A stretch of DNA of 64,000 nucleotides from Octopus vulgaris (Eukaryota), in the NCBI GenBank assembly GCA_951406725.2, contig OX597823.1, positions 113,336,001 to 113,400,000 of the forward strand. The letters run 5' to 3'. Shown here in pieces: positions 1 to 58,532 of this stretch. A program made the translations under genes and the position numbers. The notes below the pieces were generated by a model. The model saw nothing but the letters and a program-made list of their open reading frames with translations, searched no databases and was not told the DNA's origin. Positions within the stretch are counted from its first letter, which is position 1. Every line of letters starts with the position of its first letter.

Positions 1-2
1 AG

Positions 3-2039
3 GAGCTGGACGAACCCCACAACCGGAATATTCCAACAGATGGCCATCCATGCTCATCACCAAATAATCAAAAGAAAAAGAAGGAAAAATGGTCTAGGGA
101 AGATAATAAAGAAGTTCTTGAGGCCTTCTACCATGCCATATATTTCCCCACAGATAAGTCTAGCACTGTACAAGCATACTTAAACTGGAGACAGAAACAC
201 CCTGAAGTAAGACCCTACATAGACAGTAACAAGCTTGCCAATGTTAGAAGAAACATTATAAAAAAGAAATTACTGACTGAAGTAGAGATTGATCAGGTTA
301 GACAAGCAATATCGGATAAAATGAACGAAGCTGCAGCTAGAGAAGATAATACAGAGGAAATGATTATAGACCAGCCCAGGGCGGATAAAAACGAAGAGAG
401 GATTGAAAGAGTTAGTATAAGTGATAGGCAAAGTGAAATACGCCCTGAACCAATCATAAACACTAAGACAGATGAGCATCAAATAGATAAAGAAAGTCAC
501 ACAAATATTGACCCAACAGAACTACATGAGCTAAAAAATCAAATCATGATTGAATGGCTGAAAATTAAAGAAACCAGCATGGATGAGCGTGATACACTTC
601 CTAAAATCCGCAACTCTAACCAAAACATGAAAATAATTGGTAAAATCCGGCTTGCACTTAAGGATATAATTTCAGTTAATGATGTTGATATCACAAACCT
701 CAACCACCTATACTATGCATCCGCGAAAATCTCAACGATCCTATGTGGTGTAAAGATTAGAAAACGGCAACAGTCCCACAAAAAGCCTTCTTGGCAAGAG
801 CGTCTGCAACAACAAATTAAAATATTTAGATCTGACATTGAATATTTGAAAAACCTTAAGGCTCACAAGATTACCAAACCTACAAAAACCCAAAAATTAC
901 TGAAAAAATACAATATGAAAACTATACTTGATATTGATGCCACCATAGAAACCATCAAACAAAAGGTATCTGCCAAAGCTGCCCGCATAGCGAGGTATGA
1001 AAAGCGTGCTAGATTTTTCAAGGACAACAACATGTTCAAAAATAACACCAAGAATTTTTACAGGAAGATAGGAAAAACAGCGTTTACTGCAGGGTCTGTA
1101 CCATCAAAAGAAGAAGTGCAGAGATTTTGGAATAAAATCTGGGCAGAAGAAAAAACACACAACGAAAAGGCCCCCTGGATTGACAGAATATCTACAGAAC
1201 TGAACCCCTTAGAAGAGCAAAAGTGGGAGGGTGTCAAAGTAGAAGATATAAGATCTGCTCTCAGGAGGTCAAGCAAATGGAAGTCTCCAGGAAAGGATAA
1301 AATTCCTAACTTCTGGCTGAATGCCTTCCCAGAGAGCCATGAACTGCTAACAGAACTGTACAATGATGTTTTGCAACACCCTAGTAGGATGCCTCCTTGG
1401 CTAGTTAATGGGTTAACATTCCTGCTTCCAAAAAGTGAAGAAACAAATGAACCAAAAAACTATAGACCCATAACTTGCTTAACAACTATGTACAAAACAC
1501 TAACATCTGTCCTGACGGAATATACCTATAGTTTTTTAACAGACAGCAGCATATTCCCTAATGAACAGAAAGGATGTAAACGTGGATCCTACGGCTGTAA
1601 AGACCAACTACTCATCAATAAGATGATCTTAGAAGATTGTCACAAACGACACAAAAACTTATCAATAGCCTGGATAGACTATAAAAAGGCTTTTGATAGC
1701 CTACCACATAGCTGGATTAGGAAATGCCTTGAAATGTATAAGATAGCACCAACTCTGCGAAACTTCTTGACTGTAAGTATGAGATCATGGAGAACCACAC
1801 TAACTCTGAACAGTGACAGTGAATTCCTAAATGCTGGTGATGTAAAAATTTCGTGTGGCATTTTCCAGGGTGACTTACTGTCACCACTCCTCTTTTGTTT
1901 ATCTTTAATACCTCTCTCAAAGCTGCTCAATGACGCGCAGTACGGGTATAAAATGTTTGATAAAAATATAAATCATCTCGTTTACATGGATGATTTAAAG
2001 CTTTTGCAAAAAATGATCAACAACTCAAGGGCTTACTAG
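3..2039 (+). CDS. Dong/R4 ORF, N-terminal part (Myb-like domain and RT up to YMDD); 5'-partial
   Basis: ORF 321..2039 extends without a stop back to nt 3. RT motifs run up to YMDDLK, then the frame is lost at about 2002-2005. Confidence 0.9.
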   Translation, partial: ELDEPHNRNIPTDGHPCSSPNNQKKKKEKWSREDNKEVLEAFYHAIYFPTDKSSTVQAYLNWRQKHPEVRPYIDSNKLANVRRNIIKKKLLTEVEIDQVRQAISDKMNEAAAREDNTEEMIIDQPRADKNEERIERVSISDRQSEIRPEPIINTKTDEHQIDKESHTNIDPTELHELKNQIMIEWLKIKETSMDERDTLPKIRNSNQNMKIIGKIRLALKDIISVNDVDITNLNHLYYASAKISTILCGVKIRKRQQSHKKPSWQERLQQQIKIFRSDIEYLKNLKAHKITKPTKTQKLLKKYNMKTILDIDATIETIKQKVSAKAARIARYEKRARFFKDNNMFKNNTKNFYRKIGKTAFTAGSVPSKEEVQRFWNKIWAEEKTHNEKAPWIDRISTELNPLEEQKWEGVKVEDIRSALRRSSKWKSPGKDKIPNFWLNAFPESHELLTELYNDVLQHPSRMPPWLVNGLTFLLPKSEETNEPKNYRPITCLTTMYKTLTSVLTEYTYSFLTDSSIFPNEQKGCKRGSYGCKDQLLINKMILEDCHKRHKNLSIAWIDYKKAFDSLPHSWIRKCLEMYKIAPTLRNFLTVSMRSWRTTLTLNSDSEFLNAGDVKISCGIFQGDLLSPLLFCLSLIPLSKLLNDAQYGYKMFDKNINHLVYMDDLKLLQKMINNSRAY

Positions 2040-3535
2040 CGATAGTCAAACAATTCAGTGACGACATCAGAATGCAATTCGGCCTCGATAAATGTGCAAA
2101 GGCTACCTTTATCAAAGGAAAAATGACAGAAACATCTAACGTTAACCTTGACCAACAGAATGTCATAAAAGAACTAGACCCAGCGGAGAGCTACAAGTAC
2201 CTAGGGATAATTGAAGGGAACGGAATAAGGCATTCAGAGATGAAGGAAAGGATCAGGAGAGAATGCTATCGAAGAGTGAGAGCAATACTCAAGACAGAGC
2301 TGAATGCAAGAAACAGGATCGAAGCAATCAATGCATTAGCTATACCAGTCGTGACTTACAGTTTCAATATTGTTAACTGGTCAATTACTGAAATATGTCA
2401 GCTCGACAGAAAAATAAGGAAACTGTTGACAATGCATAGAATGCACCACCCTAAGGCAGATACAGAACGACTCTATCTGCCAAGAAAAGAGGGAGGCCGT
2501 GGTCTTTTGCAACTGGCAATAACAATGAAGATTGCTACAATTGGCCTAGACACCTACCTGAAAAACTCTGAGGACTGGATGCTAAAACTTGTCTCAAAAC
2601 ATGAAAACAAGAAAGCATCATACTCAGTCACAAAACAGGCAAAGGAATATCTAAGTGAATTCCGAATACAACCAATTTCGGAGATAGATATACAAGAAAC
2701 AAGCACAGAAAATGCTAGGCGCATGAAAACCCGTGCCAAAACTGCGGCCTTAGATATTCTGAATAATAAATGGCAAGAAAAACCTCTCTATGGCAAATAC
2801 CCAAAGAGAGCGAATAATGCAGATATCGACAAAGCCCTGACCCATCAATGGCTAATGGCCTCTGGCTTAAAATCTGAAACAGAGGGGTTTATCATAGCAG
2901 CTCAACATCAATGCCTACCAACAAGAAACTACCAGGCCAACATATTAAAGATCAGAAGCAGTCCAACGTGTCGTGTATGCAAGCAACAAAATGAAACCAT
3001 TGACCATGTGGTCTCCAAGTGCAGTCTTCTAGCGCCTACAGAGTATCTCAACAGGCACGATAGAGCTGCACAATATATTCACTGGGTAATCTGTAAAAAC
3101 CTGGATTTGCCCCATGAAAAAAACTGGTGGGAACACAAACCACCCCCAGTGCTTGAAAATGACCACATCTCACTCCTCTGGAACTTCACCATTCAAACTG
3201 ACAGGAAGATAGATGCAAATAGGCCAGACATCATATTGAAAAACTTCAAACAAAGAACATGCCTCCTCATTGATATGACTGTCCCAATCGATATAAACGT
3301 ATCTGTCAAGACCTACCAAAAACTGAGCAAATATAAAGATCTTGAAATAGAAATCAGCAAAATGTGGAAGCTGAAGACTAAAACAATACCTGTTGTCATA
3401 GGTGCCCTGGGAATGATAGCAAAAGGGGCTGATAGCTACCTAACTCAGATACCAGGAAACCCAAAAATGGCAGAAGTTCAAAAGATAGTGCTCATGGGAA
3501 CTGCTCATATCCTACGCAAAATACTCTCTATGTAA
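2006..3535 (+). CDS. Dong/R4 ORF, C-terminal part (end of RT, thumb, CCHC knuckle, PD-(D/E)xK endonuclease)
   Basis: Frame reads AKNDQQLKGLLAIVKQFSDDIR into MQFGLDKCA, then YKYLGI, RLYLPRKEGGRGL, CRVCKQQNETIDHVVSKC, RHD, NRPDII..IDMTVP..K..KYKDL, PVVIGALG. Confidence 0.92.
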   Translation, partial: AKNDQQLKGLLAIVKQFSDDIRMQFGLDKCAKATFIKGKMTETSNVNLDQQNVIKELDPAESYKYLGIIEGNGIRHSEMKERIRRECYRRVRAILKTELNARNRIEAINALAIPVVTYSFNIVNWSITEICQLDRKIRKLLTMHRMHHPKADTERLYLPRKEGGRGLLQLAITMKIATIGLDTYLKNSEDWMLKLVSKHENKKASYSVTKQAKEYLSEFRIQPISEIDIQETSTENARRMKTRAKTAALDILNNKWQEKPLYGKYPKRANNADIDKALTHQWLMASGLKSETEGFIIAAQHQCLPTRNYQANILKIRSSPTCRVCKQQNETIDHVVSKCSLLAPTEYLNRHDRAAQYIHWVICKNLDLPHEKNWWEHKPPPVLENDHISLLWNFTIQTDRKIDANRPDIILKNFKQRTCLLIDMTVPIDINVSVKTYQKLSKYKDLEIEISKMWKLKTKTIPVVIGALGMIAKGADSYLTQIPGNPKMAEVQKIVLMGTAHILRKILSM

Positions 3536-3759
3536 TCTCAAGGTTTAAAACAAACATAATTTTCGGTTTAAAAAAAAAAAAAAAAAAAAAAAACTTTTTT
3601 TTTTCTTTTTAAACATTCATTAGTACAACATCCCCACCCCCCAAATATATGGCACACTAGGCATAACAACAACATGAACTTCCAACCCTGTTGTCTCTTG
3701 AGGTCTCTGGGTGAGACTTGGAGCCAACTTGTACAAATATAAAGCAAAAGTCAAACATA

Positions 3760-5008: not shown

Positions 5009-5500
5009 ATAAATAGATAGACAGTGTTGGAGAATTTACGAAAGTTTTTGGGCAAATAAATACAGATTTGATTAACTAAAGTCCAAACAAGAATGGATTT
5101 GAATGCACATACACACACCTACACGAAAAATGACACATACCTGCATACGCATATGCGTTCACACGCACAGATATTTTATGCAAGAATCATATAAAATGGA
5201 TTTAATGACCATAAATTAAGGAAAGCTGTGAAAATAAAAACCTTATACATAGACTTCTGAACTTCGAGTGTTGAAAGATCACGATTCTAGCTATCAATGC
5301 TCATGTAGTTTTTATACGGTTTCTATTTTTCCTTTGATGATAAGTATATGTTTCATTAAATTATTAATATATATGACTTTCATATCGCCGTTTATCGTTA
5401 ACCCCACGGTGACAGCGCTATAAAAGACCATGATCTCAGCATTGTAACGTTGTAAAAATTATGTGGAATGTAAATTACGCCATGATGCTCTTAGCATATT

Positions 5501-5645
5501 TATAGATGTTTTCGATCTAGTTTGGATTCTTTGCCATCAAATTTGAATTCTTTGCCATTAAATTCTAATTCTTTGCAATCAAATTTGATGGCAAAGAATT
5601 CAAATTTAATGGCAAAGAATCTAAACTAGATCGAAAGCATCTATA
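5501..5645. repeat. Fold-back inverted repeat built from internal ~20-bp subrepeats (MITE-like)
   Basis: tatagatgttttcgatctagtttggattctttgccatcaaatttgaattctttgccattaaatt pairs with aatttgatggcaaagaattcaaatttaatggcaaagaatctaaactagatcgaaagcatctata, with few mismatches. Confidence 0.85.
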
Positions 5646-6604
5646 TATTGTTCTGTATGATACTGTAGGTATATAGACTTAGGCTGACAAAATCAAAAAT
5701 AATTTTTACCAGAGACGAAATCAGTCGGCCCGATATACTCTGAACAGTGGTAAATCTACATATTCTAGACTAAAATGAGGGTAAATATAAATTAAGCATA
5801 TGGTATACCACGTACATGTTTAACTGAGTTAACTCCAGGACACCCTATTTGCATGAGTAGTCTCTCGTTTCTTGCATTTGGACATGGACCAGACAGTTAC
5901 TACGACTGGATTCTCTGTATTGGGCAAGTTCCAATGACTTTTGAAACTGCTTTACTCTGGCTGGTTCTATATTGCCTCTCTTGTCTTATATGTGTGTGCT
6001 TGTCATAAATACACCCAGTCTTAGTACTGAAAGTATTGTGCAACAAGATGGCTGCTTGTAATTGTGGTTGGGAAAACTAATATATTTGTCGGACATACAC
6101 TGAAATTGATGTTTATCGGTAAGTTTGGTCCAGCATTGTAGAGATTACAGAAAAGGATTCAGTTGGCAAGCATGGAGAGTTTGAAATGTAGTGGACACAG
6201 AAAACGTTACTGCTGGTCTGTAGTTTCGTGCTTAAGAGAGCGGGTGCATTAAAGCTAAGATAGTGCTAAAGTTGATCCTACAAATTAGATGGAATCTTCG
6301 CCGGTGATAAACATCAGGTATTGAGACTAAGGCTTTCAATCTGCGTTGGTACAATGCCTTAAAAATAAATGTAAAATCCATCGTTGTTCAGGTGTTCACA
6401 TGCCAGCTCCGTGTGTTCGTGTTCAGGTTGAGAGTTCAAAAATAATTGCGCATTGCAGGAATGGAAAGGATTTCGAGCTTTTTCACACAAAATTATTGTG
6501 ATTTACGGAAATTAGGTGATGTATTTGTTTGTTTTGTATGATACTAAACATAAGTACAGTCAAATCATCTGTGTGTGTTATAATGGTGATAAGAATTTCA
6601 ATGA

Positions 6605-7579: not shown

Positions 7580-7948
7580 AATCAATAATAATTAGGGGTA
7601 AAATTAATTAATTAATTAATTAATTAATAATTAATAATTTTACCAAGTATTTCGGCATGTTAAAAGAACCATTATCGGTAAACTGAAACAAAAATTCTTA
7701 TAATTATGAGTATAATTATAATTAGAGTTCAGCAAAAAATTTGCTTCACCACATACCGAAATTTAGAAATAGCAGCCAAAACTGGCTATTTATCTACCAT
7801 AAAAAATCTTCCAGATAGTCTGGGACAATTTATTATGGTAGGGAAATAGCTAGTTTTAACTACTATTTCTAAATTCAGGATGTGTTGAAGCAAATTTTTT
7901 GCTGAACCCGAATTATAATTATACTCATAATCATAAGAATTTTTGTTT
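7578..7948. mobile_element. (TA)n-flanked fold-back element (~130-bp inverted arms at 7686-7948); probable PLE terminal fragment
   Basis: aaacaaaaattcttataattatgagtataattataatt...ccaga pairs with tctgg...aattataattatactcataatcataagaatttttgttt, centre near 7817. Same architecture as the HHR-bearing elements elsewhere in the window. Confidence 0.6.
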
Positions 7949-11200: not shown

Positions 11201-12261
11201 CGAGGAGAATATATTAAAACAAAACATGTGAAGTTGTCATTTCAAGAAAATTTACATCCAACGAATTCAATAGACAGATTTTATCTTCAGAGACGTTTGG
11301 GAAATGATTTTTTCAGAATACTTTTGTAAATCTCAGTTTTAATATTCTGTTTTTTAATGTCGTTTTGTAATTTTTACCTCACAATTTTTTCTTTTCTTTT
11401 CTTTGGTTTTTTTACAGTGTTTCATGAAATTTGAAAGAATATTTTCAGAAATGTTAAGAAAATTTACCTTGAAAATAATGATGTTTTCAATCATATGCAT
11501 TTTAACAAATACATACACAGAGAGACAGACAAACAGACAGACATACACACACATGAATGTATGTATGTAGACATACACACACATGAATGTATTTATGTAT
11601 GTATGTATGTATGGATGGATGGATGTATATATGTATGTATATATGCATGTATGTATGTATGTATGTATGTATGCGTGTATGTTTAAATAATACATTGAAT
11701 GTGATGGGCAATTAGGAAGTGTAAAAACGTGAAGCCGCTTGGAATAGGTGACTTAGACAGCTGAGTAATGGGCCAGATGAAATTTAATATAGTCTTTTCA
11801 TATTCTGAGTTCAGATCCCTTTAGGAATGAGTTTATACGTTACTCCACCAAAGTGAGTCTCTTAAAGTCGTTTTAATTATATCAGATTTTTCTTCATACC
11901 AAATCCTTAGGTTTTTCAGAGTAGAACGTATTAGATAGAAATGTTCTTGACATCCTGTACCTCTTTGATCAGGGATGCCCTGGACCAAACAGGATTACTT
12001 AATTTGCAACGATTAGATGCTATATTTCTTTAAGCATTGTCTTAAAAATAATATATTTCACAAGGTTGATTCTGATAAACTAATGCCGTAGAAGTTTTCT
12101 TAGACGGAGAAAACTGATTAATGCAATCCTTCAAATACAAAAAGAGAAAATGGTTAACACAAGCGGGATAAATCTGAGGAGAGACAACAGCTACAACAAT
12201 ATTTACAACTGAAAATTTCATAGGTTCGATTAAGCTGCCTTTATTCCCAATATATCTTGTA

Positions 12262-12823
12262 TTGGGTTGTCCGGAAAGTTCGTGCCGATTTTTAAAGGAA
12301 AGAAAAAGATCAATAAATACTTGCCATTACATTTTTAATCAAATATGAACCATTTTGTTGCACAATGTGTCTCCATCTTTCCTTTAACTTGAAAATACCC
12401 TCTTCCCAGAATTGAGGTGATTTCATGACAAAGAATTTATCAAGGTATCTTTTTACATCATCCAAAGAAATGAAATTTTTACCATTAAGACTATTCTGCA
12501 GAGACCTGAATAAGTGGAAATCTGAAGAAGCAATATCTGGTGAATATGGAGGGTGGGGTAACACATCCCAGCCGAGCTGCAGCAATTTTTGTCTGATTCC
12601 CAAATCATCAAGTGCCGAAAATGGACTTTCTTATCTTCCATTTTAAAGGGTTACAAAATTAACACAGGCTATAGGAACATAAACCTTCTTCCACGAAAAC
12701 ATAGCTTAAACTGTGCTCTAAATGCGGGTGTAGTCAGGTCCTATTTTATGGACTCAAACATGTTCTAAAATAAGTCGAAAGTTAAGCTACTATAAATCGG
12801 CACGAACTTTCCGGACAACCCAA
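12262..12823 (-). mobile_element. Non-autonomous mariner (internal-deletion derivative) with perfect 30-bp TIRs and TA target duplication
   Basis: TA|ttgggttgtccggaaagttcgtgccgattt ... aaatcggcacgaactttccggacaacccaa|TA. Encodes the transposase start MEDKKVHFRHL joined to the C-terminus LPHPPYSPDIASSDFHLFRSLQNSL..WEEGIFKLKERW (YSPDLAPxD motif). Confidence 0.95.
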
Positions 12824-13515
12824 TATTTAACTTACAAATTAATGATGATATGATAGAAGACTATTATGTAGCATGCGCACTTGATAACGTATGTTACAAC
12901 ATAGAAAATTTAGAATGCATAAATGATCGCGAATCAAGAATGATACATGACTGAATCCAGTTGAAATCCCTCAAGCCAATACATTAACTTCACCTATTAC
13001 TATGATTTACCTGAAAGATTTTCATTTACACAACTGATTTTCATCGATTTAATTATAATTTGATAAGAAAACAGAAAAATAGAAATTACGGGTAAATGGT
13101 CAAAAGATTTCAATTGCTGAAATATAGGGAAAGTTAAGTTTAATCAGCTACTGAGATTAAGACTGCCACAAGGTACATTGGTTGCCTTATACCCGAGTTC
13201 ACTCTGTATCAAGCCAGGTTTTCGGTTGGTGAGAATTTCCTCTCCCCCTCCTAACACACCCACGATAATTTTTAAGTGATGTAGGTACTGTTCTTCTTTC
13301 GTGAAGGAAAAATAAAAATAAAATATTTCGAATTGCAAAATATTCTGACCCTTCTGCTTTCAAAAGCACTGTGTATTTATGGCTTGCCTTAATAACACAA
13401 GGCAATTTATTCCACGCTCAACCGATTCTAATGTGCAGCATATTACCTTGCAGAAGCATAACTTCAAGGCAACAACTATTCAGAGTAGTGTATTGATGAA
13501 CAACTTATTTGACTA

Positions 13516-18739: not shown

Positions 18740-19362
18740 GTATATACACATATATATGCGTGTGTGTGTGTATGTATGTATGTATATGGGCGTGTGCGTA
18801 TGTTTTCGTGTGTACATGTATGTGTGCGTTTGCGTGTATGTATACATGTATATATATATATATGTGTGTACGTACATGTGATTTAAATTCGACCTGCTAT
18901 TAGATTCATACTTTGAAAACATGTTGGTCTGACAAGCTTCTGCAGAGTGCTGTGTTTCAAAGTATCGAAGTAGTCTTTCAGACTCAATTATACAATATGG
19001 CGGGTTCGTTTAAACAATGAGAAAAAACGAGAAGAGTCAAAAATTAAGCGGAACGAGAGAAAAGAAAATATCATAATTTACTAGCTTTCTTTGGTCCTTA
19101 CCTGCGTTTTCTGAAAAACAAGCTGGTTTCATTATTGTTTTTAGTTTTAAATGCACGAGCCATGTTGTATATTTAAGTTTAGAAGACCGTCTAGAGATAC
19201 TCAACACGCTATACAACCTGTACAAGCTTGTCAGATCATCGTGAATGCTCAGTAGGTATCTATTAGTGGCCCGAATTTAAATGTATATTAAATGGTTCTT
19301 ATCTCACAATGGATGGAACACTTTTTTGTTCATACGCCTCCAAAAAAGGAACAATGCATTTA

Positions 19363-19417
<55 letters not shown>

Positions 19418-19451
19418 TACATATTTATATGTATATATGTATAAATATACA

Positions 19452-19495
<44 letters not shown>

Positions 19496-19758
19496 TATAT
19501 ATATATATGTATATATATATAAATATCCATTTAAAATGCATACATACATACATATATATATATGTATATATATATTTATATATGTTTAAATATTTGTTGT
19601 GCAAGATTTTTTATGTGAAGTCGTGTGTTGAAACAGATATTGTTATATTTCGGAATGGTCATATTGCCAGTTTAGCCAATAAAAACACACGCACTATATA
19701 TTTGGTGTTATTTTGCTTCAGTGATATTTATTTTTTACATTAATCTTAATCTTATTTC

Positions 19759-19802
19759 GGCCAAAGTTCTTTCGTCACACTCCTGTGACCGCATCAGTGG
19801 CC
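19759..19802 (-). ncRNA. Minimal type-I hammerhead ribozyme motif (A9->C variant, extra G)
   Basis: ggcca CUGAUGC G gucaca-ggag-ugugac GAA AG aa CU U uggcc: 5-bp stem I, 6-bp stem II, 2-bp stem III, CUU site. Confidence 0.7.
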
Positions 19803-19914
19803 TTTGTTTTCTTCTCACTTACTTGTGTCTCTCCTTACTAACCGTCAGCCATTTTGTATACAAAATGGCTGACGGTTAGTAAGGAGAGACACAAGTAAGT
19901 GAGAAGAAAACAAA

Positions 19915-19959
19915 GGACCACTGATGCGGTCACAGGAGTGTGACGAAAGAACTTTGGCC
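19915..19959 (+). ncRNA. Minimal type-I hammerhead ribozyme motif (mirror copy)
   Basis: ggacca CUGAUGC G gucaca-ggag-ugugac GAA AG aa CU U uggcc. Confidence 0.68.
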
Positions 19960-20082
19960 GAAATAAGATTAAGATTAATGTAAAAAATAAATATCACTGA
20001 AGCAAAATAACACCAAATATATAGTGCGTGTGTTTTTATTGGCTAAACTGGCAATATGACCATTCTATTTTAAATATATACA

Positions 20083-20155
<73 letters not shown>

Positions 20156-20187
20156 GCATTTTAAATGGATATTTATATATATATACA

Positions 20188-20337
20188 TAGGTTGTGGATT
20201 TCCACCTCGGCATACGAAACTCAGAGTTTTATGTTGGCTATTGAATAACTGTCACATATTATTTTACAGATAAATTTCCTTTATTTACATATATTGGGGT
20301 CTCTTTCTTTCTTTTGCTATCTTACCGTTTTTACCAA
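20188..20337 (+). mobile_element. Truncated copy of the family at 51081-51283, carrying the 3' half of an HHR-like motif
   Basis: ggttgtggatttccacctcggcatacGAAActcagagttttat.ttggctattgaataa..gataaatttcct..gtctctttc..ttttaccaa aligns to 51081-51283. Confidence 0.65.
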
Positions 20338-20382
20338 CCTCCCCTACTTTCCTTCTCCTGTCTGACCAATCTGTCCGGCACT

Positions 20383-20573
20383 AGTCGCCATGATAGATCG
20401 TTAGCCACTACCCACATTTTTCTCTCTCCTTGTTTTTTCTGTGTCCCTTTCTGTAGAAGAGCGTAGGCTCGAAACGTAAAAGACTTTTTCTATTCCTGAG
20501 CGTTATACTAATACATCTGTTTGTTTTGTACAGCACCTGTCTTCGTCTTTTGTTTCTTTCGTAAACTTTCCCT
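20383..20573 (+). mobile_element. 3' end of the Penelope-like family seen at 57028-58227, with HHR, ending in (TA)n
   Basis: Colinear with 58025-58227 (cgccatg..tcgttagc.act, gaagagcgtaggctcgaaacgt.aaagactt, tcctgagc..atactaatac, cacctg.cttcgtcttttgt). Confidence 0.85.
20447..20482 (+). ncRNA. Minimal HHR motif, CUGUAGA core variant
   Basis: cuuu CUGUAGA A gagc-guag-gcuc GAAAC GUA aaag: stem I cuuu/aaag, palindromic ACGU in place of stem III. Confidence 0.65.
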
Positions 20574-21884
20574 ATATATATATATATATAAATACGCATG
20601 TAAATATGTGTGTGTTTCAGTGTGTATGTATGTATGTGTGCGCGTGTCTGCGTATATATATATAAACATATGTATATAATTTATATGCGTGTGCGTGAGC
20701 GTATATGTATTCATATATTCATAGATAAGTGCGTATGTGCGTGTGTGTGTGTGCGTGTGTGTGTACGAGTATGCAAAAATATATCAGTAGATATGGAAAA
20801 TGGTATTTTTTTGATCATATTATATTGAAATTGAAGGAAATTATTTAAAACCGCACAAAATAGCTTGACAAAGCATAGCTTATGCATGGAAACGTATTCT
20901 TTGCTGCTGACATAGTAAACCTGCCGTATTAAGTGTGCTGTAAACGGGAGATGATTTGGTATCAGGAGCAGGTGAAACATAACAACGCAGAGAAATATAT
21001 ATTATTGTCCGTTGATGCCAGACTAGGTCTGTTGTTTTTCTCCCGTATTCTCAAGAAAGAGGATTTCCTTTCCAAGACAGTTACTGTAGCGAAAATCTTC
21101 CATACTGAAGTGCACATACACACATATATATATACATGTATGTATTTATTACTATATGTGTTTATATGTATGCGTTTGGGTGAGTGTGTCGGTAAGTCTG
21201 TTTGTGTTTACATGTACAGTAAGAGAGCTCGAACAAGATAACAGGAAATCGCACTGAGGGAAACTAGAGAGTTTCTCTTTAAATATCACCAGAATTAAGT
21301 AACAAATCAAAACAGTATCGGAATATTTATACGTCACATACTAATATTTCGACATAGGAATTCTATTTCAGAGTTTGGAAAGAGAATTGGATGCAAATTC
21401 ACGAACAGCGATATTCGTGCCAAAATACTTTTGTAACTGACATTAAAAAATCCGGAAGTTGCGTTAATAGATTTGTCAAGGAAATGGACTGTCAGTGCCA
21501 ATAACGGTATGCTACGAAGGATACCTGGATAAGTTAGTGTGTGTTGGAATGTATATGTTCCGATGTAGAGTATTAGCAGAAACAGATTCTATCTTTGCGT
21601 GGAAACTCCACTATATGATTGAAGAAGCCAAGGATGTATATATAAATTCCTGATGCACGAGAGTTCGAAATTCATAATTTGCTGTCCGTTTAGAAATTAT
21701 AAGTATTATTGTCCTTCGAATACTATATATACTTATAGACATGTATAAGATATAACAGACGGGCATACACATGCAAAAACCAAATATACAGCCGCACAGA
21801 TACATAGATAAATTCACGCACACACACGCATACACACACATGACAACTCGCACACACACATATATGAATTATATATATTCTTTT

Positions 21885-22247: not shown

Positions 22248-22501
22248 TACCCTTGGCCGAATCACAAAGTGACGGTGACGTAAACACACCAACACTGGTT
22301 GCCAAGCCTTGGTGGAGAAGAAACATAGAAACAATATCACACCAACATAAGTATATGCATACATGCATGTATGGATATACATCCATCCATCAATCCATCT
22401 ATCAATCCATCCATTCATTCATCCATCCATCCATCCATCCATCCATCCATCCATCCATCCATACATACATACATACATACATACATACATACATACATAC
22501 A

Positions 22502-25439: not shown

Positions 25440-25580
25440 TGTTCTGAGCTCAAATTCCTACGGGCGCGACTTGGCCTTTCATCTTTTCTGGATCGAGTAG
25501 AATAAAGTACCAGTTGAACACTGGATCGACGTATTCAAATAACTCCTCTCGCAAAATTTCAGTTATTGTTCCTTTAGTAA
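25440..25580 (+). mobile_element. SINE fragment (family of 42065-42830)
   Basis: gttctgagctcaaattcc..gacttggcctttcatc..ataaagtaccagttgaacactgg.tcga. Confidence 0.7.
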
Positions 25581-25997: not shown

Positions 25998-26050
<53 letters not shown>

Positions 26051-26051
<1 letters not shown>

Positions 26052-26279
26052 CCGGAGTAAATACATAAATGTGAAACAAGGTGAAAAGAAGAGTATTCAA
26101 ATACAGAGGTAGAGTAATAGGCTTTAGTTAAAAGCAGCGGAAATTTAACAAAAGCTGTTACTCGGAGTTTCTCGTTCCTGTTCGTCGGACAATTTTTTTT
26201 TAACAAAACTGTCCGACGGCCGGGAACGTAAAACTCCGAGTAACAGCTTTTGTTAAATTTCTGCTGCTTTTAAATAAAG
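26051..26279. mobile_element. (TA)n-flanked fold-back element (inverted arms 26122-26279) with an HHR-like motif in each arm
   Basis: Arms ttaaaagcagcggaaatttaacaaaagctgttactcggagttt..gtcggaca and tgtccgac..aaactccgagtaacagcttttgttaaatttctgctgcttttaa. Second copy at 29567-29710. Confidence 0.75.
26155..26192 (-). ncRNA. HHR-like motif with CCGACGA core
   Basis: uugu CCGACGA acaggaacga GAA ACUC c GAGU A acag. Mirror copy on + at 26209-26246 and a third copy near 29649-29682. Inferred consensus stem II acg-ggaa-cgu. Confidence 0.55.
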
Positions 26280-26798
26280 TATATATATATATATATATCA
26301 TATATATGAAGCTGTAAATTAGATGCATGTGTGTGTTTGTGTTTGCGTATATGAGTGTGCCTGCGTGTGTGCATATGTGTGTGTGTGTGTGTGCGCGTGT
26401 ACAACGTAAAGCTTTATAAAACAGATAGTTCCAAACAGTTATACTGTGATTCAATAATCCCGAATGAAACAGCGATTCATTTAATCACTGATGCAGCTCC
26501 GCCAACACAGAGCCCTTGCCATCATTCATGACTCGACAGACAGCAACTGTGCAACACAATTATATGTAATTCCATTACAGTATCACGTTACGTCGGGATA
26601 TTGAAATATGATGGAATTAATGATGGTTTCTAACATTAATAATAATTATTTCTAACATCTATGATGGAATTTATAATACATTAATAAGATGGGCAGTGAT
26701 CAATCCCGTAACCCCTTAGGTCATTAGACTGTGAATATCTTTAGAACATCCCCATGAAGCAAGTTGTGAAATAGTAAATACAACACAGTATCATATAC

Positions 26799-28160: not shown

Positions 28161-28560
28161 TATAATGGTGTCTGATAATTCTACTACCACAATCCTACTT
28201 CTAATTCGGTGCAGAGAAGTTTTATGGAAAGATGTAGGTATATGTATGTATGAATGTATGTATATATGTGTGAATGTATGTAGGCATGCATGCATGTAAG
28301 TATATTAGCGATAGATACAGTATTAGTTTAGAATAGTATTCTGTGTATCACGCCTAACACAGATATACAGTAGAAACGCTGAATCCTGAGCTATTGAACT
28401 TGGTAATGTGTTTTGTGTACATGTATCGCGTCTAAAAGCACAGAAATATAGCAATAACAGACAAATGGCAGCGGTGTAGATAGTTATGTATATGTGCGTA
28501 TATATGTTATGTATGGGGACACACACACACATGCATATATATATATATATATATATATAT

Positions 28561-29090
28561 TGTTATATTACGCAATATTTTAACTATGGCAAAGCAATAG
28601 AACACTCCTGGTAAGTCACAAGTATTTACTCACAGAAATCAACTTTTATTTCTTTTCTTACAAGTGTTCAATGTGGCCCCATCTGCAGCCCAAGCAACAT
28701 CAATGCGATAAGAGAAATCCTCCCAGACGTGTAACAGCATGTCAAAAGCAACTTCGATATGGAACTGAAGAATACATTTGCTTTGCTTGAGGCGATTCCA
28801 GAAGATATTAACATAGAAGGGAAATGGAAAATCTTCAATAAAGCATTCAACGAAACAGCCAAAGAACTACTCAGTAGATCGTGATATGCTGATACGCGTC
28901 TGGGAGGAATTCTCTTATCACATTGATGTTGCCCGGGCTGAAGATGGTGGCCACATTGAACGCTTGTGAGACAGGAAATAAAATTTGATTGTGAATAAAT
29001 ACTTGTGACTTTGCCGGAACTTTCTATTGCTTTTCCTTACTAGAATATTGCGTAATGACATTGGTTTTTTCCCCTTTGAATGACCCTGCA
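28561..29090. mobile_element. Fold-back of a Tc1/mariner-superfamily (maT/DD37D-like) transposon 3' end around a ~145-bp RTE-like spacer
   Basis: Inverted arms ~28567-28741 and 28886-29056. The right arm encodes DRDMLIRVWEEFSYHIDVARAEDGGHIERL* and ends tttgaatgaccctgca (TIR-like). The spacer encodes NFDMELKNTFALLE..IEGKWKIFNKAFNETAKELL. Confidence 0.7.
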
Positions 29091-29102
29091 TATATATATA
29101 TA

Positions 29103-29335
29103 TAATAATTATTATTTGAGGGAATAAAATCCAAACTTAGAAGGAAAAAATTTAGAAATACTAAATCAAATTTCACACAATAAAATATATATATAAAAAA
29201 TTAGAAAAAAACACCTTTTATCAATTCAAAATGAACAATTAAATTACACCATCTAGAAAATTACATAAAATAGAAAAGTTAAAATTAAAATAACAATAAA
29301 ATGTAAAGATTAAGTAAATTGAAAAAATAATAATA
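29103..29335. mobile_element. (TA)n-associated dispersed repeat, second copy at 58262-58532
   Basis: Shares tgagggaata..tccaaactta, aatttagaaat.ctaaatcaaatttcaca, caccttttatcaattcaaaa, taaattacaccatctagaaaattacata. Confidence 0.75.
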
Positions 29336-29349
29336 TATATATATGTATA

Positions 29350-29545
29350 AAGGGAACGTTTACGAAAAAAAAAACAAAAGACGAAGGCAGTTGGTGTACA
29401 AAACAAACAGATGTATTAGTATAGCGCTCAGGAATAGAAAAAAGTATTTTATGTTTCAAGCCTACGCTCTTCTACAGGAAGGTACACAGAAAAAACAAGG
29501 AGAGAAACAAGGAGAGAAAAAAATGTGTGTAGTGGTTAATGATCT
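29350..29545 (-). mobile_element. 3' end of the PLE family at 57028-58227 (third copy), HHR at 29446-29482
   Basis: Reverse complement of 20400-20573; motif reads ccuuc CUGUAGA A gagcguaggcuu GAAAC AUA aaau (decayed). Confidence 0.8.
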
Positions 29546-29566
29546 ATCTATCTATATATATATATA

Positions 29567-29710
29567 CACCAAATTAAGCATATAGATGTGAAGAGGTTGG
29601 CAAAAAATAGTACTCGAATACCGGAGGTAGAGTAATATGCTTTCTAAACTGTCCAACGAATGGGAGCTTGAAACTCTGAGTAGTAAATTTGTTTTATATT
29701 TTTGTCATGT
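29567..29710. mobile_element. Second copy of the 26051-26279 family, again with an internal inversion
   Basis: agtactcgaataccggaggtagagtaatatgcttt followed by aaactgtccaacgaatgggagcttgaaactctgagta. Confidence 0.65.
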
Positions 29711-34589: not shown

Positions 34590-34663
<74 letters not shown>

Positions 34664-34664
<1 letters not shown>

Positions 34665-35130
34665 TGTTGTATTTCAGTATGGTCAGTTTTCTCTTTTGCC
34701 AAATTAACACACGCACTATGAATTCGTTTTTCACTCGTTTATTACTGTTCTTATTTTGACTTCTGTGCATTGTCCGGAAAACTTTCGTTACACATCTGTG
34801 ACCTTCTTCGGCGACACGTTTCGTCTTCGTGTGTGCTCTTATTCTGCTTGTTCCATTCTGTTCTTCTATCATAAAAGAATAGAATTGAACAGAATAGGCA
34901 AATTAATAATTATAATAATAAAGCTGAGCATGAGCACACACTAAGACGGAAGGTGTCACTGAAGAGGTCACAGACGTGTGACGAAAGATTTCTGGACAAT
35001 GGACATGTGTTAGACTACGAACAGTAAAAAATGAGTAAAAAATGAATACATAGTGCGTGTATTTATTTGGCAAACAAAAAAGAAAAGAAAACTACTATCC
35101 CAAATACAAATCTGTTTCAACACACGACTT
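34664..35130. mobile_element. Older fold-back PLE-type element related to 19590-20065, HHR in both arms
   Basis: Inverted arms (acacgcactatgaattc / gaatacatagtgcgtgt; cattgtccggaa / ttctggacaatg). Shares the tail tgtttcaacacacgacttcacat..aatcttgca with the 19590 and 53171 copies. Confidence 0.75.
34954..34998 (+). ncRNA. Minimal type-I hammerhead ribozyme motif with canonical CUGAAGA core
   Basis: uguca CUGAAGA G gucaca-gacg-ugugac GAA AG au UU C uggaca. A decayed mirror copy lies on - at 34771-34816. Confidence 0.72.
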
Positions 35131-35147
35131 CACATTTGAAATCTTGC

Positions 35148-35190
<43 letters not shown>

Positions 35191-41419: not shown

Positions 41420-42064
41420 TGTATATATATACATTTAGATATACATACAGATGTATATATATATATATATATATATACATACATACATAATACACCAAGA
41501 TTTATATTTCACACACGCGCAACCTAATTACGCACTATTACTCCGCCCACATATATATGTAAGTGTATTTGAATTCTTGTGCGTAAGACTAGGTGTGGTG
41601 TGTGTGAGTAGGCTTTACCGTAATAGTGTATAATTAGGTTAGGGAAAGAGGCAATAGCTTCCACTGTATTAGCTGGAGATGTTACACTTGTGATTGACAA
41701 GACATCCTCAAATTGAGATTAAAACTCCCGTCTACAAACCCCATTTGATAGATGAGATATTTAATGAGTAATGTCCCTTTAAATCTCATGATATCGTAAT
41801 GTCTATTTGATATGCATAATAAACGTTTTATACTACTCTTCATTGTTGGTGTTTTTGTCGCAGTTTGCGTTACTATTGTTGCTGTCATTATTGTTGTTGT
41901 TTTATATCTAGGTCAACACCGATCCAGCGGAGATTTGGTCGATATTTCTCGAAGATTGAAACCCCGATCATATTTAACTCGATGGTATTATTTTTTTCCT
42001 TTTTCTATCAAGTTGAATATTACCAGAAGGAAATGACTACTGTTTGAAGCGGATGGAAACACCA

Positions 42065-42830
42065 AATACTTATTTCTTTATTGCCCATAAGGGGCTAAAC
42101 ATAGCGGGAACAAAGAAGGACAGACAAAGGGACTAATTCGATTACCCCGACCCCAATGCGTAACTGGTACTTATTTAATAGACCACGAAAGGATGAAAGC
42201 CAAAGTAGACCTCGACGGAATTTGAACTCAGAACGTAGCAGCAGATGAAATACTTATTTCTTTATTGCCCACAAGGGGCTAAAAACAGAGAGGACAAACA
42301 AGGACAAACAAAGGGACTAATTCGATTACAATGACTCCAGTGTGTAACTGGTACTTATTTAATCGATCCCGAAAGGATGAAAGGCCAAGTTGACCTCGGC
42401 GGAATTTGAACTCAGAACGTAGCAGCCGATGAAATACTTCTTTACTACCCACAAGGGGCTAAACACAGAGAGGACAAACAAGGACAGAATGTATGTATGC
42501 ATGTGTATGCATGTACGTGTTTGTGTACGTATGTGTGTATATATACATATACATAACCATATATAAATTGTATGAAGCTAAGCAAAACTGTTAAATAATA
42601 TATGTATTTCTTTATTGCCCACAAGGGGCTAAACATAGAGGGGACAAACAAGGACAGACAAACGGATTAAGTCGATTATATCGACCCCAGTGCGTAACTG
42701 GTACTTAATTTATCGACCCCGAAAGGATGAAAGGTAAAGTCGACATCGGCGGAATTTGAACTCAGAACGTAGCGGCAGACGAAATACCGATCAGCAATTC
42801 TCCTGGCGTGCTAACGTTTCTGCCAGCTCT
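42065..42830 (-). mobile_element. Tandem array of an octopus-type SINE (~183-bp unit; 3 full and 1 partial copies)
   Basis: Repeated tttctttattgcccacaaggggctaaa..actggtactta..gaaaggatgaaagg.aaagt.gacctcggcggaatttgaactcagaacgtagc. Only the last unit has the tRNA-like head (gctaacgtttctgccagctc). Confidence 0.88.
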
Positions 42831-49198: not shown

Positions 49199-50079
49199 AT
49201 GTATGTATGTATGTATGTGTGTATGTATATACACAGATACGTAGCGTGTATTCATTTTATTTAAATGAAGCATAGAAAATGTAGGTAATCCAAAATCCTC
49301 TGATGCAGGTGGGAATATGACATGCTGTGAGGCTGGAAGTCACGATGCAGCACAAACGTAAGAAATGGTTTTTATGGCCTGCACACATATCATTTTCAAA
49401 AGGATAACGATAAAAGGAGATCCTTTCAGCTATTTTTGCAATCTTCTGCATTCTCACACAAGCTCAGTTGTCCGTCCTTTATCTTGCAACTAAAAAAATA
49501 TTGTGTGTGTTCGCGAGACAGACTTTGATGCGTGTGGACCTGTTTCTCACTAAAAAATTAGTTTTGACATTCACCAAGCTAGCACATATAACCCATAATG
49601 GTCAAACCAAAGCTGATGAATAAGCGGTCTTGTTTGATAGCGGGGATATTTTGCGTGTTTACCACAATAAAATATAGATACTTGCATAGTTATAGACGCA
49701 CGAAGAAGAATCTGTGGTTTAGCCCGTCCCATTCAATGACGCGATTACATTCCTTGTTGAAAATTTTGCCTCGTTATTCAGGGCGTCTTATTAATTATTA
49801 AAACTATGTGAAGTCAGGAAGTTCAGAGACACTTTTAGGAGATATAGTATTAAGTGTCGTTGTTCATTGCGATTTTAGTACATCATTAACATACATTTAA
49901 AAAAACTGACTTGTCTCTTGATATTCCAGATTGAACGTGACAGCTATAACAGCACTCTGAACACATCCTACTAAATACGTCTTGTCAGACCTGACTAGCT
50001 TGCAGAAAGTAGCACAGATGTTTGGAAGCTCGCTATGCAATAAAGTCTTGTGTTTATCCAGGCAAAAGTGGTACGGAAA

Positions 50080-50670
50080 TTTATAAAATGCCCCCGGTGG
50101 TAGGTTGGCTTTTTTGCTAGCACAAGAACGCCAAGGCCGATAAAGAGGCTTGGTTACACGGTGAGAGGGACATCAGAATATCAGCTTGCTTGAGAGAACT
50201 CGCAATTTTCTGGATGAAGACAATTGTTTGTCTTTAAAGACTAAACACGAATTTTTGGCACTTGTACGTGCAAAATGTGTGCAAAGTTTGTGCAAAGTGT
50301 CTCTGGACTTTCTGAATGCATCGTTTTAATAATTAATAAGACGCTCTAAATGACGAGGCAGACATTTCAACGAGGAATGTAATCACGTCTTGAATGGGAC
50401 GGTAAAGCATCGTGCGTCTCTATCTATGCAAGTATCTATCTCAGGTGGGCTTCAAAATTGTACCTCACGTTCCCTACAGTCTTAACCACGCTCCCTGTGA
50501 TTTTGGAGTTTCTACAAGCTAACAGGGAACCTGTGAGGCAACCGTTTCTAATATAAAGGCAGCTGGGACAAAGGTCTTGAACACTTCCAATTTGGAGTAC
50601 GTGCATGTGTTGTTCACTGGAACGCTAGAGCGCTACGATATGTGCACTGAAAAGAGACTATCTTTCTTTG
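50080..50670 (+). pseudogene. Degraded mariner transposase remnant
   Basis: ~50450-50510 encodes FKIVPHVPYSLNHAPCDF (HPPYSPDLAPCDF motif). Downstream cactggaacgctagagcgctacgatatgtgc resembles the terminal WxxRxxKC segment. Boundaries approximate. Confidence 0.6.
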
Positions 50671-51080
50671 GATGGAGATTAGAATTTTCTGATTCTTTGA
50701 AATTAACAAATATCTCTCCTGAGAAGTCTGAGAACTCCTGGTATGCAACTTGAGACAGAAAATTCTCAGAGCTACAAATGGCTGATATTTCAGTGTGGTG
50801 GAGAAGATGCCACACAAATGCCGCATTTCTGTAGCTTCAGGTTCATAAAAGGTTTAACATAAGATTAACATAAAAGGTTTAACATAGTAAGTAGAAACAA
50901 CTTCAAGACATAAGGCACGTTTTTGCTTATTTTATTGTATCTTTACCTCGATTTATAATTCTTAGTCTATTTGTTAACTGACGATGTGGAGCTCCTAGTT
51001 CATCAAACACATTTTACAGACTAAATATAAATATGTACATGGAAATACATAAATACATACATACATACATATATATATAT

Positions 51081-51283
51081 GTGCAAAATAATATGTGACT
51101 ATTATTCAATAGCCAAGATAAAACTCTGAGTTTCGGATACCGAGGTGGAAATCCACAACCCCATCTGAAAAACGCTATAGCGTTTTATCTTGGCTATTGA
51201 ATAATTGGCTTTTTGCAGATAAATTTCCTCTATTTAGACAATATTGAGGTCTCTTTCTTTTGTTGTCTTACTGTTTTTACCAA
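51081..51283. mobile_element. (TA)n-flanked fold-back element with HHR-like motif on the minus strand (51118-51170)
   Basis: Arms ttattcaatagccaagataaaac / gttttatcttggctattgaataa. Minus strand reads CAGAUGG gguuguggauuuccaccucgguaucc GAA ACUC a GAGU U. Confidence 0.6.
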
Positions 51284-53170: not shown

Positions 53171-53174
<4 letters not shown>

Positions 53175-53452
53175 TGTTGTATTTCGGAATGGTCATTTTG
53201 CCAGTTTAGCCAATAAAAACACACGCACTGTATATTTTGGTATTACTTTGCTTCAGTGTTATTTATTTTTTACATTAAACTTAATCTTATTTCGGTCATA
53301 CTTTAAACTTAATGTTATTTCGGCCAAGGTAACACCAAATATATAGTGCGTGTGTATTTTTTGGTTAAACTGGCAAAATGACCATTCCGAAATACAACAA
53401 TAAATGTTTCAACCCACGATTTCACATAAAAAAATCTTGCATAGCTAATATA
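53171..53452. mobile_element. Third fold-back copy of the 19590-20065 family (arms end before the HHR)
   Basis: ttgttgtatttcggaatggtcattttgccagttta..cacacgcact versus agtgcgtgtg..taaactggcaaaatgaccattccgaaatacaacaa. (TA)n on both sides. Confidence 0.8.
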
Positions 53453-57920: not shown

Positions 57921-58099
57921 TGGTCCTTCAACCCTATTATCAACCCTATTATCAACCCTATTATCTCCCCTTATTTCGCTCTCGCGTCTCATGTTTGATC
58001 TTTGACCTCTGGCCGAAATCAGATCGCCATGTTGATTCGTTAGCTACTGCACGCATTTTTTTTCTCTCCTTCTTTCTGTGTTTTTTTTCTCTCTGTGTA

Positions 58100-58137
58100 T
58101 CTTTCTGTTGAAGAGCGTAGGCTCGAAACGTTAAAGA
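58100..58137 (+). ncRNA. Minimal HHR motif, CUGUUGA core variant
   Basis: ucuuu CUGUUGA A gagc-guag-gcuc GAAAC GUU aaaga: 5-bp stem I, 4-bp stem II, palindromic AACGUU. Confidence 0.7.
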
Positions 58138-58227
58138 CTTGTTTTATTTATATTTCCTGAGCACCATACTAATACGTTTGTTTTCCACCTGCCTTCGTCT
58201 TTTGTCTATTTTCATAAAGCTTCCCGT

Positions 58228-58261
<34 letters not shown>

Positions 58262-58532
58262 CAATAATAATAATAATATGAGGGAATATCATTCCAAACT
58301 TACAGGGAAAGATTCAATTTAGAAATGCTAAATCAAATTTCACAATATATATATATATATGTGTGTGTAAATTAGAAAACAAACCACCTTTTATCAATTC
58401 AAAACGAAAAACTAAATTACACCATCTAGAAAATTACATATAATAGAAATATTATATTCCTTTCTAGATGGTATAGGAATATCCTTCAAAGATGGATTCC
58501 AAAAAAGTGGTTCTATTTTCCCTGTTAGTTCT
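58262..58532. mobile_element. (TA)n-associated dispersed repeat (copy of 29103-29335)
   Basis: Colinear with 29103-29280. Contains a local inversion accatctagaaa/tttctagatggt. Confidence 0.7.

Follow-up and report, generated by a model that had tools for sequence, protein, structure and literature searches.

How does a genome come to contain 413 consecutive bases whose two halves mirror each other almost perfectly, with no loop between them, and does such a structure serve any purpose? The question is raised by positions 19653–20065 of a 64-kb stretch of Octopus vulgaris DNA, which was analyzed as a whole and is referred to here as the window; its GC content is ~34% and it is rich in microsatellites. 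Our analysis indicates that a Penelope-like element (PLE), as judged by the anatomy of the sequence, probably left the palindrome as a solo insertion of its inverted terminal repeat, and that its function is probably none. Because its head-to-head repeats, junction palindrome, one-sided tail and (TA)n target have all been published for PLEs, and because the window holds at least nine fold-backs, it is likely the youngest and least decayed example of a common class of scar.

Structure of the palindrome and its relatives

Alignment of the left arm (19653–19858, 206 bp) with the right arm (19859–20065, 207 bp) gives 206 matches and one gap, the sole difference being an extra A at 19917 in the right arm, and the spacer has length 0. 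This bears out the near-perfect, loopless palindrome that had been reported in a first-pass annotation made from the letters of the window. The left arm is a 5'-truncated terminal-repeat (pLTR-like) copy with its RNA-sense on the minus strand, 91–93% identical to the sister copy at 53172, and the right arm is an inverted copy with its RNA-sense on the plus strand. The center, TA/TA at 19858/19859, lies in an 8-nt self-complementary stretch without spacer (19855–19862), the likely site of snap-back. Before the indel interrupts it, the perfect even core extends 58 bp to each side of the center; no other such core in the window is as long, and it exceeds every (TA)n run, the runs that dominate a whole-window inverted-repeat search. 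The central region has one other match in the window, the hammerhead helix of the sister copy at 34661 (copy B).

The two arms end differently. On the left, the last 16 nt of the repeat (19637–19652, minus strand) are family-typical and are followed by a 37-nt tail (19600–19636, minus strand), which is present on the left arm only and is common to the tailed arms of the sister copies (35112–35148 and 53404–53441); 16 nt of filler (19584–19599) connect the tail to the flank. On the right, an altered version of the left arm's 16 nt forms a tail-less end (20066–20086, plus strand) that runs into (TA)n (20087–20111). For the stretch 20066–20111 the best alignments are to those ends of the two sister copies that lack the tail, with scores of 60 and 63, both inflated by the (TA)n run; the left flank scores 42, and the sequence that follows the left arm itself scores 17. 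A tail of 37–38 nt is found on one arm in all three family copies, with an A+C fraction of 0.57–0.67, and folding of the tail RNA in search of a stem-loop was not significant (z −0.5 to 0.7).

Outside these unequal ends the symmetry resumes. Flank segment A (19506–19583, plus strand), which lies within a (TA)n-rich array, recurs as an inverted duplicate, A' (20112–20189, minus strand), and the mirrored block including flanks extends over 19506–20189, the (TA)n arrays around the locus covering 19363–19583 and 20074–20189. The annotated span of 19653–20065 holds for the palindrome itself, but these limits are too narrow, since the element reaches 19600 on the left only and mirror symmetry returns at 19506–19583 and 20112–20189. 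Directly left of the palindrome's microsatellite array lies a very old inverted repeat (18881–19360; 68% identity, spacer ~98, right-side extension), and at least three insertions are clustered within 1.7 kb.

A profile search of the window recovered six arms, distributed over three loci; nothing else reached an E-value below 1. All three family loci consist of a head-to-head pair with one tailed arm and a tail-less arm that ends at the same place beside (TA)n. Copy B (34661–35148) is an old, near-symmetric fold-back with 168 matches, 32 mismatches and 8 gaps, a spacer of 9, and the tail on the right arm, which holds a canonical hammerhead core with A9 and C17. Copy C (53172–53441) is asymmetric (74 matches, 7 mismatches, 1 gap), is truncated before the hammerhead core, and has a junction microhomology of ~6 nt. 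Its tail-less arm holds a 74-nt loop and its short arm the tail; the loop contains a short tandem duplication of ~25 nt (53255–53325), likely due to polymerase slippage before the junction. The annotation's observation that the related copies turn at different points is confirmed by these two loci, and the expectation that other copies carry inversions agrees with the head-to-head arrangement of all three family copies, whose turn points vary.

The plan extends beyond the family. Among nine fold-backs examined, of at least nine in the window, six are fully or almost symmetric, with spacers of 0, 2, 3, 6, 9 and 18 nt, and three are asymmetric; the figure of 6/9 with a spacer of at most 18 nt was obtained by automatic alignment with the element at 51075 counted as asymmetric. 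A one-sided extension, judged by eye, is present in eight. Arm identity of the other fold-backs ranges from 68 to 91%, with 72–87% in the five that have whole-structure matches and 68% at 18881. The nine include the loci at 19653 and 53172, which fell below the filter of the inverted self-match scan and were taken from separate alignments, and leave out three inverted self-matches of that scan: the mariner terminal repeats at 12260–12825, a pair of repeats with a 459-nt gap at 49674–50439 and a 30-nt match at 22351. The second of these (~160 bp inverted repeats, 80% identity, 459-nt spacer) is likely a non-autonomous DNA transposon, and the first belongs to a mariner remnant with 35-bp terminal inverted repeats (34/35 identical) and a C-terminal transposase fragment (12313–12606, minus strand).

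Individual fold-backs differ in age and geometry. The element at 51075–51283, of the same family as 20190–20337, is asymmetric, with an 18-nt micro-palindrome at its junction (51169–51186) followed by a jump, and a loop on the tail-less arm. A symmetric fold-back of another family at 26050–26284 (72 matches, 11 mismatches, spacer 2) has a left-side extension, which also matches 29542–29643, and a degenerate hammerhead-like motif. The symmetric fold-back at 7630–7948 (114 matches, 15 mismatches, spacer 3) is extended on its left side and ends on the right in (TA)n; we saw no hammerhead in it, and it possibly represents a hammerhead-less PLE family. The fold-back at 28550–29090 is old, with 204 matches, 47 mismatches and a spacer of 18; it is extended by ~35 nt on the right and contains a degenerate hammerhead-like core. 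At its termini it resembles the family of the 19653 locus, but the family profile gave no match there. Finally, 5498–5648 is a fold-back of ~21-nt internal repeats (66 matches, 6 mismatches) in which no tail was recognized.

Hammerhead motifs and identity of the element

Each arm bears one hammerhead motif. The left copy (19759–19802, minus strand) is of minimal type I, with helices I, II and III of 5, 6 and 2 bp, a fold z of −3.3 and a predicted cut at 19764/19763; the right copy (19915–19959, plus strand) has the same core, a helix I bulged by the extra A, a fold z of −1.7 and a predicted cut at 19954/19955. The annotation had stated that each strand encodes the same outward-pointing ribozyme. 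There is indeed one motif per strand and both point outward, but they are not identical because the indel falls in helix I, which is a perfect 5 bp on the left and bulged on the right. A 41-nt hammerhead stretch was found twice (19759–19799, minus strand, and 19919–19959, plus strand), and two matches were obtained in none of 100 shuffles.

The core residues C3 U4 G5 A6 N7 G8 and G12 A13 A14 and the A15.1-U16.1 pair are all present. The extra base after position 9, the G10.1-C11.1 pair, a helix II of at least 6 bp and a helix I of 4–5 bp are found in full in the left copy and with a bulge in the right; the 15.2-16.2 pair is present, and loop 3 is AA, which is not palindromic. The conserved A9 is C in both arms (19791 and 19927) but A in both arms of copy B, and position 17 is U in both arms and C in the right arm of copy B. 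By its sequence, the motif is a mutated derivative of the minimal type I motif of PLEs. A9 is required for the hammerhead, and U17 makes a poor cleavage site. With A9 replaced by C, both hammerheads are probably dead or impaired. The assignment was made by descriptor scan, which caught the left copy only, together with folding and alignment; the Rfam hammerhead families gave no match at the gathering score in the whole window and none among 44 matches at E-values up to 10 in 19600–20620. Covariation in the four hammerhead rows, which are too few, was not above that of shuffles (109/500).

When one arm is folded by itself, helix II pairs with a probability of 0.85–1.0; for the whole palindrome the value is 0.0, and the helix is predicted to be unable to form in read-through RNA because the 736-nt region becomes a single long hairpin (−502 kcal/mol, z −47). 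The hammerheads of a transcript running through the center are predicted to be buried within the 206-bp duplex; the motifs lie on opposite strands, and therefore the dimer that motifs of this kind require cannot form within one transcript. The starts of the arms (19860–19870) contain what we take to resemble a YY1-type start-site element, and the RNA could thus have its natural 5' end at the turn point, instead of having been truncated there at random.

Membership of the PLEs is assigned by anatomy because the parent open reading frame was not seen. The inverted, 5'-truncated, head-to-head copy occurs in 3/3 family copies, the target is AT-rich microsatellite DNA here and in the sister copies, and a palindrome with a spacer of 0 stands at the inverted junction. 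The inverted truncated repeat, the one-sided tail, the (TA)n target and the minimal type I hammerhead agree with the Penelope-type anatomy proposed by the annotation. Recently active Penelope-like families, as well as Dong-R4 families, are described for Octopus vulgaris in extracts of PMC13282606.

An autonomous PLE was considered and rejected, as no frame with a telomerase-like reverse transcriptase and GIY-YIG domain was found at the locus or among the scanned frames. Specifically, none of 342 short frames reached a curated Pfam cut-off, with one sub-threshold match to DUF1360. These 342 were drawn from 362 complexity-filtered stop-to-stop frames of at least 48 aa; 17 of the 20 frames left out lie within a non-LTR element at 1–3609 and three had already been scanned. 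Among 10 longer, chosen frames, which repeat two of the 342, two matched Pfam, both of them belonging to an unrelated non-LTR element. The same Pfam frame scan recognized no host exon, a search that short exons and low-complexity frames would escape.

The remainder of the window has its own mobile elements. The non-LTR retrotransposon at 3–3535 (plus strand), presumably Dong/R4-like, matches RVT_1 and zf-RVT, with best relatives 57–60% identical; its two long frames overlap at 1994–2036, which gives one frameshift, and by eye it has a C-terminal CCHC motif and a restriction-like endonuclease motif. Relatives of the transposon proteins in the window are 40–73% identical, the named matches coming from shrimp, fish, corals, insects and a whale. 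Three tandem units of ~184 bp (88% alike) at 42064–42787, with relatives at 25441, 47390, 60977 and 63101, are SINE-like.

As to function, RNA reading through the palindrome would be predicted to form a duplex of at least 206 bp, or up to ~280 bp with the flanks, and to serve as a generic substrate for editing and dicing. Repeats are widely edited in coleoids according to extracts of PMC9068888. Palindromes of this kind, if often transcribed, would feed editing and small-RNA pathways, as expected of animal inverted repeats. Nothing suggests selection for duplex RNA. A bacterial promoter scan, which is not applicable to animal DNA, gave matches at chance level. The single locus is a dead non-coding fragment of little weight, its anatomy having been described for PLEs since at least 2013; its value is that of a clean snapshot of PLE integration.

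Origin of the palindrome and its mirrored flank

We consider it probable that the palindrome arose by a single recent insertion of a PLE into (TA)n, in which both cut strands primed cDNA and a snap-back bridged the two products. Directly visible in the DNA are the two arms, the zero spacer, the tail on one arm, the surrounding (TA)n, the recurrence of this plan in both sister copies and, in addition, the inverted flank copy. The left target end would have been primed at a distal start, with the tail included, and the right end at a proximal start, with the tail excluded; the 3' end of one cDNA would then have folded at TA/TA, been copied into the sense strand and paired with the other cDNA. 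A snap-back bridge is required in this scheme because two cDNAs of the same polarity cannot pair. A full snap-back copy would give a symmetric palindrome, as at the 19653 locus, and a jump at a microhomology an asymmetric one, as in copy C and the element at 51075.

The annotation had proposed snap-back or template-switch priming, for which self-priming at PLE junctions sets a precedent (extracts of PMC3846280). Plain snap-back alone is insufficient, however, because any loop stays on the first strand and a copied arm cannot hold sequence that its template strand lacks, and it cannot supply the tail in copy C and the element at 51075. In both asymmetric cases that have a reference copy (2/2, these same two), it is the tail-less arm that contains the loop and the short arm that contains the tail, and therefore either a second cDNA or a later removal of the tail is required. 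These two arrangements make a second cDNA likely, and the 18-nt micro-palindrome at the 51075 junction is a mark of snap-back. The 19653 locus cannot separate twin priming from pure snap-back because it is symmetric, and the argument is carried by the two other loci. The multi-base change at the right end (20066–20086) fits neither twin priming nor snap-back.

A scheme with a single cDNA is unlikely. Here the tailed cDNA would snap back once at TA/TA and be copied back in full, the tail being skipped by slippage in the AT repeat, the flank being copied as A', and the product being joined at 20190. Both arms and the flank duplicate would come from one event, in keeping with their similarly low divergence (1/206 and 1/78), and the right end does align in part with the left flank (score 42). 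Yet the skip must land on precisely the tail-less end that is seen in both sisters, the blunt join to a 5'-truncated neighbor needs an extra deletion, and the scheme fails for copy C and the element at 51075, whose tailed arm is the short one.

The age of the insertion bears on the next alternative. With a single difference over 206 bp, divergence comes to 0.24% per arm, with a 95% upper bound of 1.4%, and a count by eye gives no private changes for the unpaired tail of the left arm, compared with three and four for the tails of the sister copies. No partner arm exists from which the tail could be corrected, and therefore its lack of private changes supports youth independently, if weakly. We regard the very young insertion suggested by the annotation as probable on these two grounds. 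In the ~114 bases that can be compared with the sisters, two private substitutions were counted by eye; if those two arose after insertion, a single arm difference would be unlikely (P 0.005), and homogenization would therefore be needed. Together with the altered right end, these substitutions leave some room for a later homogenization.

An older insertion, with arms and flanks later homogenized by polymerase template switching or inter-arm conversion, nevertheless seems quite unlikely. Long palindromes without a spacer tend to be unstable, the unpaired tail is free of private changes, and none of the eight other fold-backs is homogenized. In its favor, both arms share the changes from A9 to C and from C17 to U relative to copy B, and identity ends abruptly at 20065; template switching that homogenizes short inverted repeats and makes multi-base changes has a precedent in yeast (extracts of PMC8604942).

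Two further explanations carry very little weight. Chimeric reads give near-perfect identity, a zero spacer and mirrored flank DNA, all of which are seen here. A fold-back chimera from library preparation or assembly is still very improbable: it would mirror the tail too, but the right arm has no tail and ends like the sister copies, and the neighborhood contains natural fold-backs with the same layout whose arms have diverged; polishing could have erased a few arm differences. The unmirrored tail and these neighbors thus favor the natural origin that the annotation had assumed. The second, a MITE-like DNA transposon of the fold-back type or else a gene under selection for a hairpin RNA or microRNA, would account for long inverted repeats in TA targets and for low E-values of Rfam microRNA models at the center, but is highly improbable and was rejected, given the asymmetric ends with a one-sided tail, turn points that vary among copies, a hammerhead motif that indicates an RNA intermediate, and Rfam matches that are all below gathering score (best 74 bits vs 117) and, for microRNAs and snoRNAs at E-values up to 10, driven by pairing and structure rather than by sequence.

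Returning to the favored twin-primed insertion, the inverted copy of host flank is the one oddity of the locus and the only lead, the rest having already been described for PLEs. A and A' are identical at 77 of 78 positions when compared in inverted orientation, with unchanged repeat length, and at 20 of 78 in direct orientation. Their best match elsewhere in the window measures 37 nt, and their 19-nt core occurs at two places only in the window when up to three mismatches are allowed. A direct target-site duplication was rejected for A/A' on account of the 20/78 direct identity and the inverted orientation; any short direct duplication of the target would be unreadable in (TA)n, and the only flank repeat seen is inverted. 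In the open-licence papers searched, a set that does not cover the older Penelope papers, no report of an inverted host-flank copy at a PLE was found.

Segment A' is joined bluntly, with no homology, to a neighboring repeat at 20190–20594 (plus strand), which is 5'-truncated, belongs to other families and contains a minimal hammerhead motif at 20447–20482. Over 181 columns, 6 private substitutions were counted in the neighbor, fewer than in the other two of its three copies (11 and 30). Its hammerhead part belongs to a second family (20385–20594, 29334–29548 and 58024–58249) in which U replaces core A6 in 3/3 copies and none has an inverted arm; two copies of this second family abut one other repeat (29090–29330 and 58249–58449), in different orientations.

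For A' we prefer, with evenly divided confidence, an origin in two steps: a (TA)n break end would have folded back when the neighbor at 20190 inserted, in the manner of LINE-1, and the palindrome element would later have entered the (TA)n apex. This order is preferred because A, A' and the truncated neighbor match the layout of folded reciprocal ends at LINE-1 insertions. Counting against it, A and A' differ at 1 of 78 positions and the neighbor at 6 of 181, a disparity with P of 0.10 to 0.014 at 2.5–4% divergence. An origin of A' and the palindrome in the same event, which we entertain tentatively, gives equal ages, yet the snap-back strand must then recreate the family's usual tail-less end.

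A generalization can be drawn, which we hold to be doubtful as it stands: PLEs may insert via a double-strand break with two target-primed cDNAs and a snap-back bridge, a process that would also fold back host DNA, and nested insertions into (TA)n may build growing perfect palindromes. If so, in a genome with about one fold-back per 7 kb such scars would supply long double-stranded RNA and fragile sites on a large and unrecognized scale, and the second-strand step of PLE integration, which is unsolved, would be readable from the geometry of their junctions.

Comparison with known systems

The closest counterparts are the endonuclease-positive PLEs, i.e., Penelope/Poseidon, Neptune and Naiad. 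Extracts of PMC8557442 describe an inverted 5'-truncated copy, a tail of 30–40 bp on one side, a range that includes the 37 nt found here, and insertion into (TA)n, where target-site duplications are hidden from view, and call for work on PLE inverted structures, and extracts of PMC3846280 describe palindromes of 18–38 bp at inverted junctions, which are read as self-priming. The 19653 locus shares the head-to-head inverted ends, the junction palindrome, the one-end tail, the (TA)n target and the lack of a readable target-site duplication, but differs from the elements in these extracts in having no open reading frame between or beside the repeats and in the inverted host flank outside the palindrome. 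The palindrome here spans the whole 206-bp arm, compared with 18–38 bp in Adineta (PMC3846280, extracts), a paper that prefers self-priming on an antisense template and reports antisense small RNAs from Penelope copies. Naiads have no canonical hammerheads.

For Poseidon of Anolis carolinensis, in vitro work (extracts of PMC11167929) shows that AT-rich DNA is cut by the enzyme on both strands, each of which it then extends, that hammerhead cleavage is not needed, and that reverse transcription starts at two RNA sites bracketing the tail. The favored reading of the 19653 locus is alike with respect to the two starts around the tail, the cutting and extension of both strands and the AT-rich target; the AC-rich stem-loop at the Poseidon starts finds no support from folding here. 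The same extracts do not address the joining of the two products, and they describe the later integration steps as not validated.

The hammerheads resemble the minimal type I motifs of metazoan PLEs (extracts of PMC4209133) in the extra base between positions 9 and 10.1, the G10.1-C11.1 pair, the long helix II, the short helix I and the 2-bp helix III, and differ from them in C9, U17, the non-palindromic loop 3 and the placement of the copies on opposite strands; hammerhead pairs on opposite strands 100–700 bp apart are reported for Schistosoma in the same source. Non-LTR retrozymes (extracts of bioRxiv 10.64898/2026.07.22.740005) are likewise non-coding, carry a type I hammerhead and are likely PLE-derived, but are direct tandem repeats, in contrast to the inverted pair here. 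A non-LTR retrozyme was rejected for this locus, since only microsatellite-type arrays occur in 19200–20800 and the hammerhead copies are inverted.

The mirrored flank has its nearest parallel outside the PLEs. LINE-1 insertions with an inverted flank duplication primed at 2 bp of TA/AT have been described (extracts of bioRxiv 10.1101/2024.12.14.628481), and their order of flank, TA/AT hairpin junction, inverted copy and 5'-truncated insertion corresponds to A, A' and the neighbor at 20190. The two systems differ in the class of the element, in the source of the DNA, which is a germ-line-type genome here and cell clones or tumors there, and in the second element that stands at the hairpin apex of the octopus locus.
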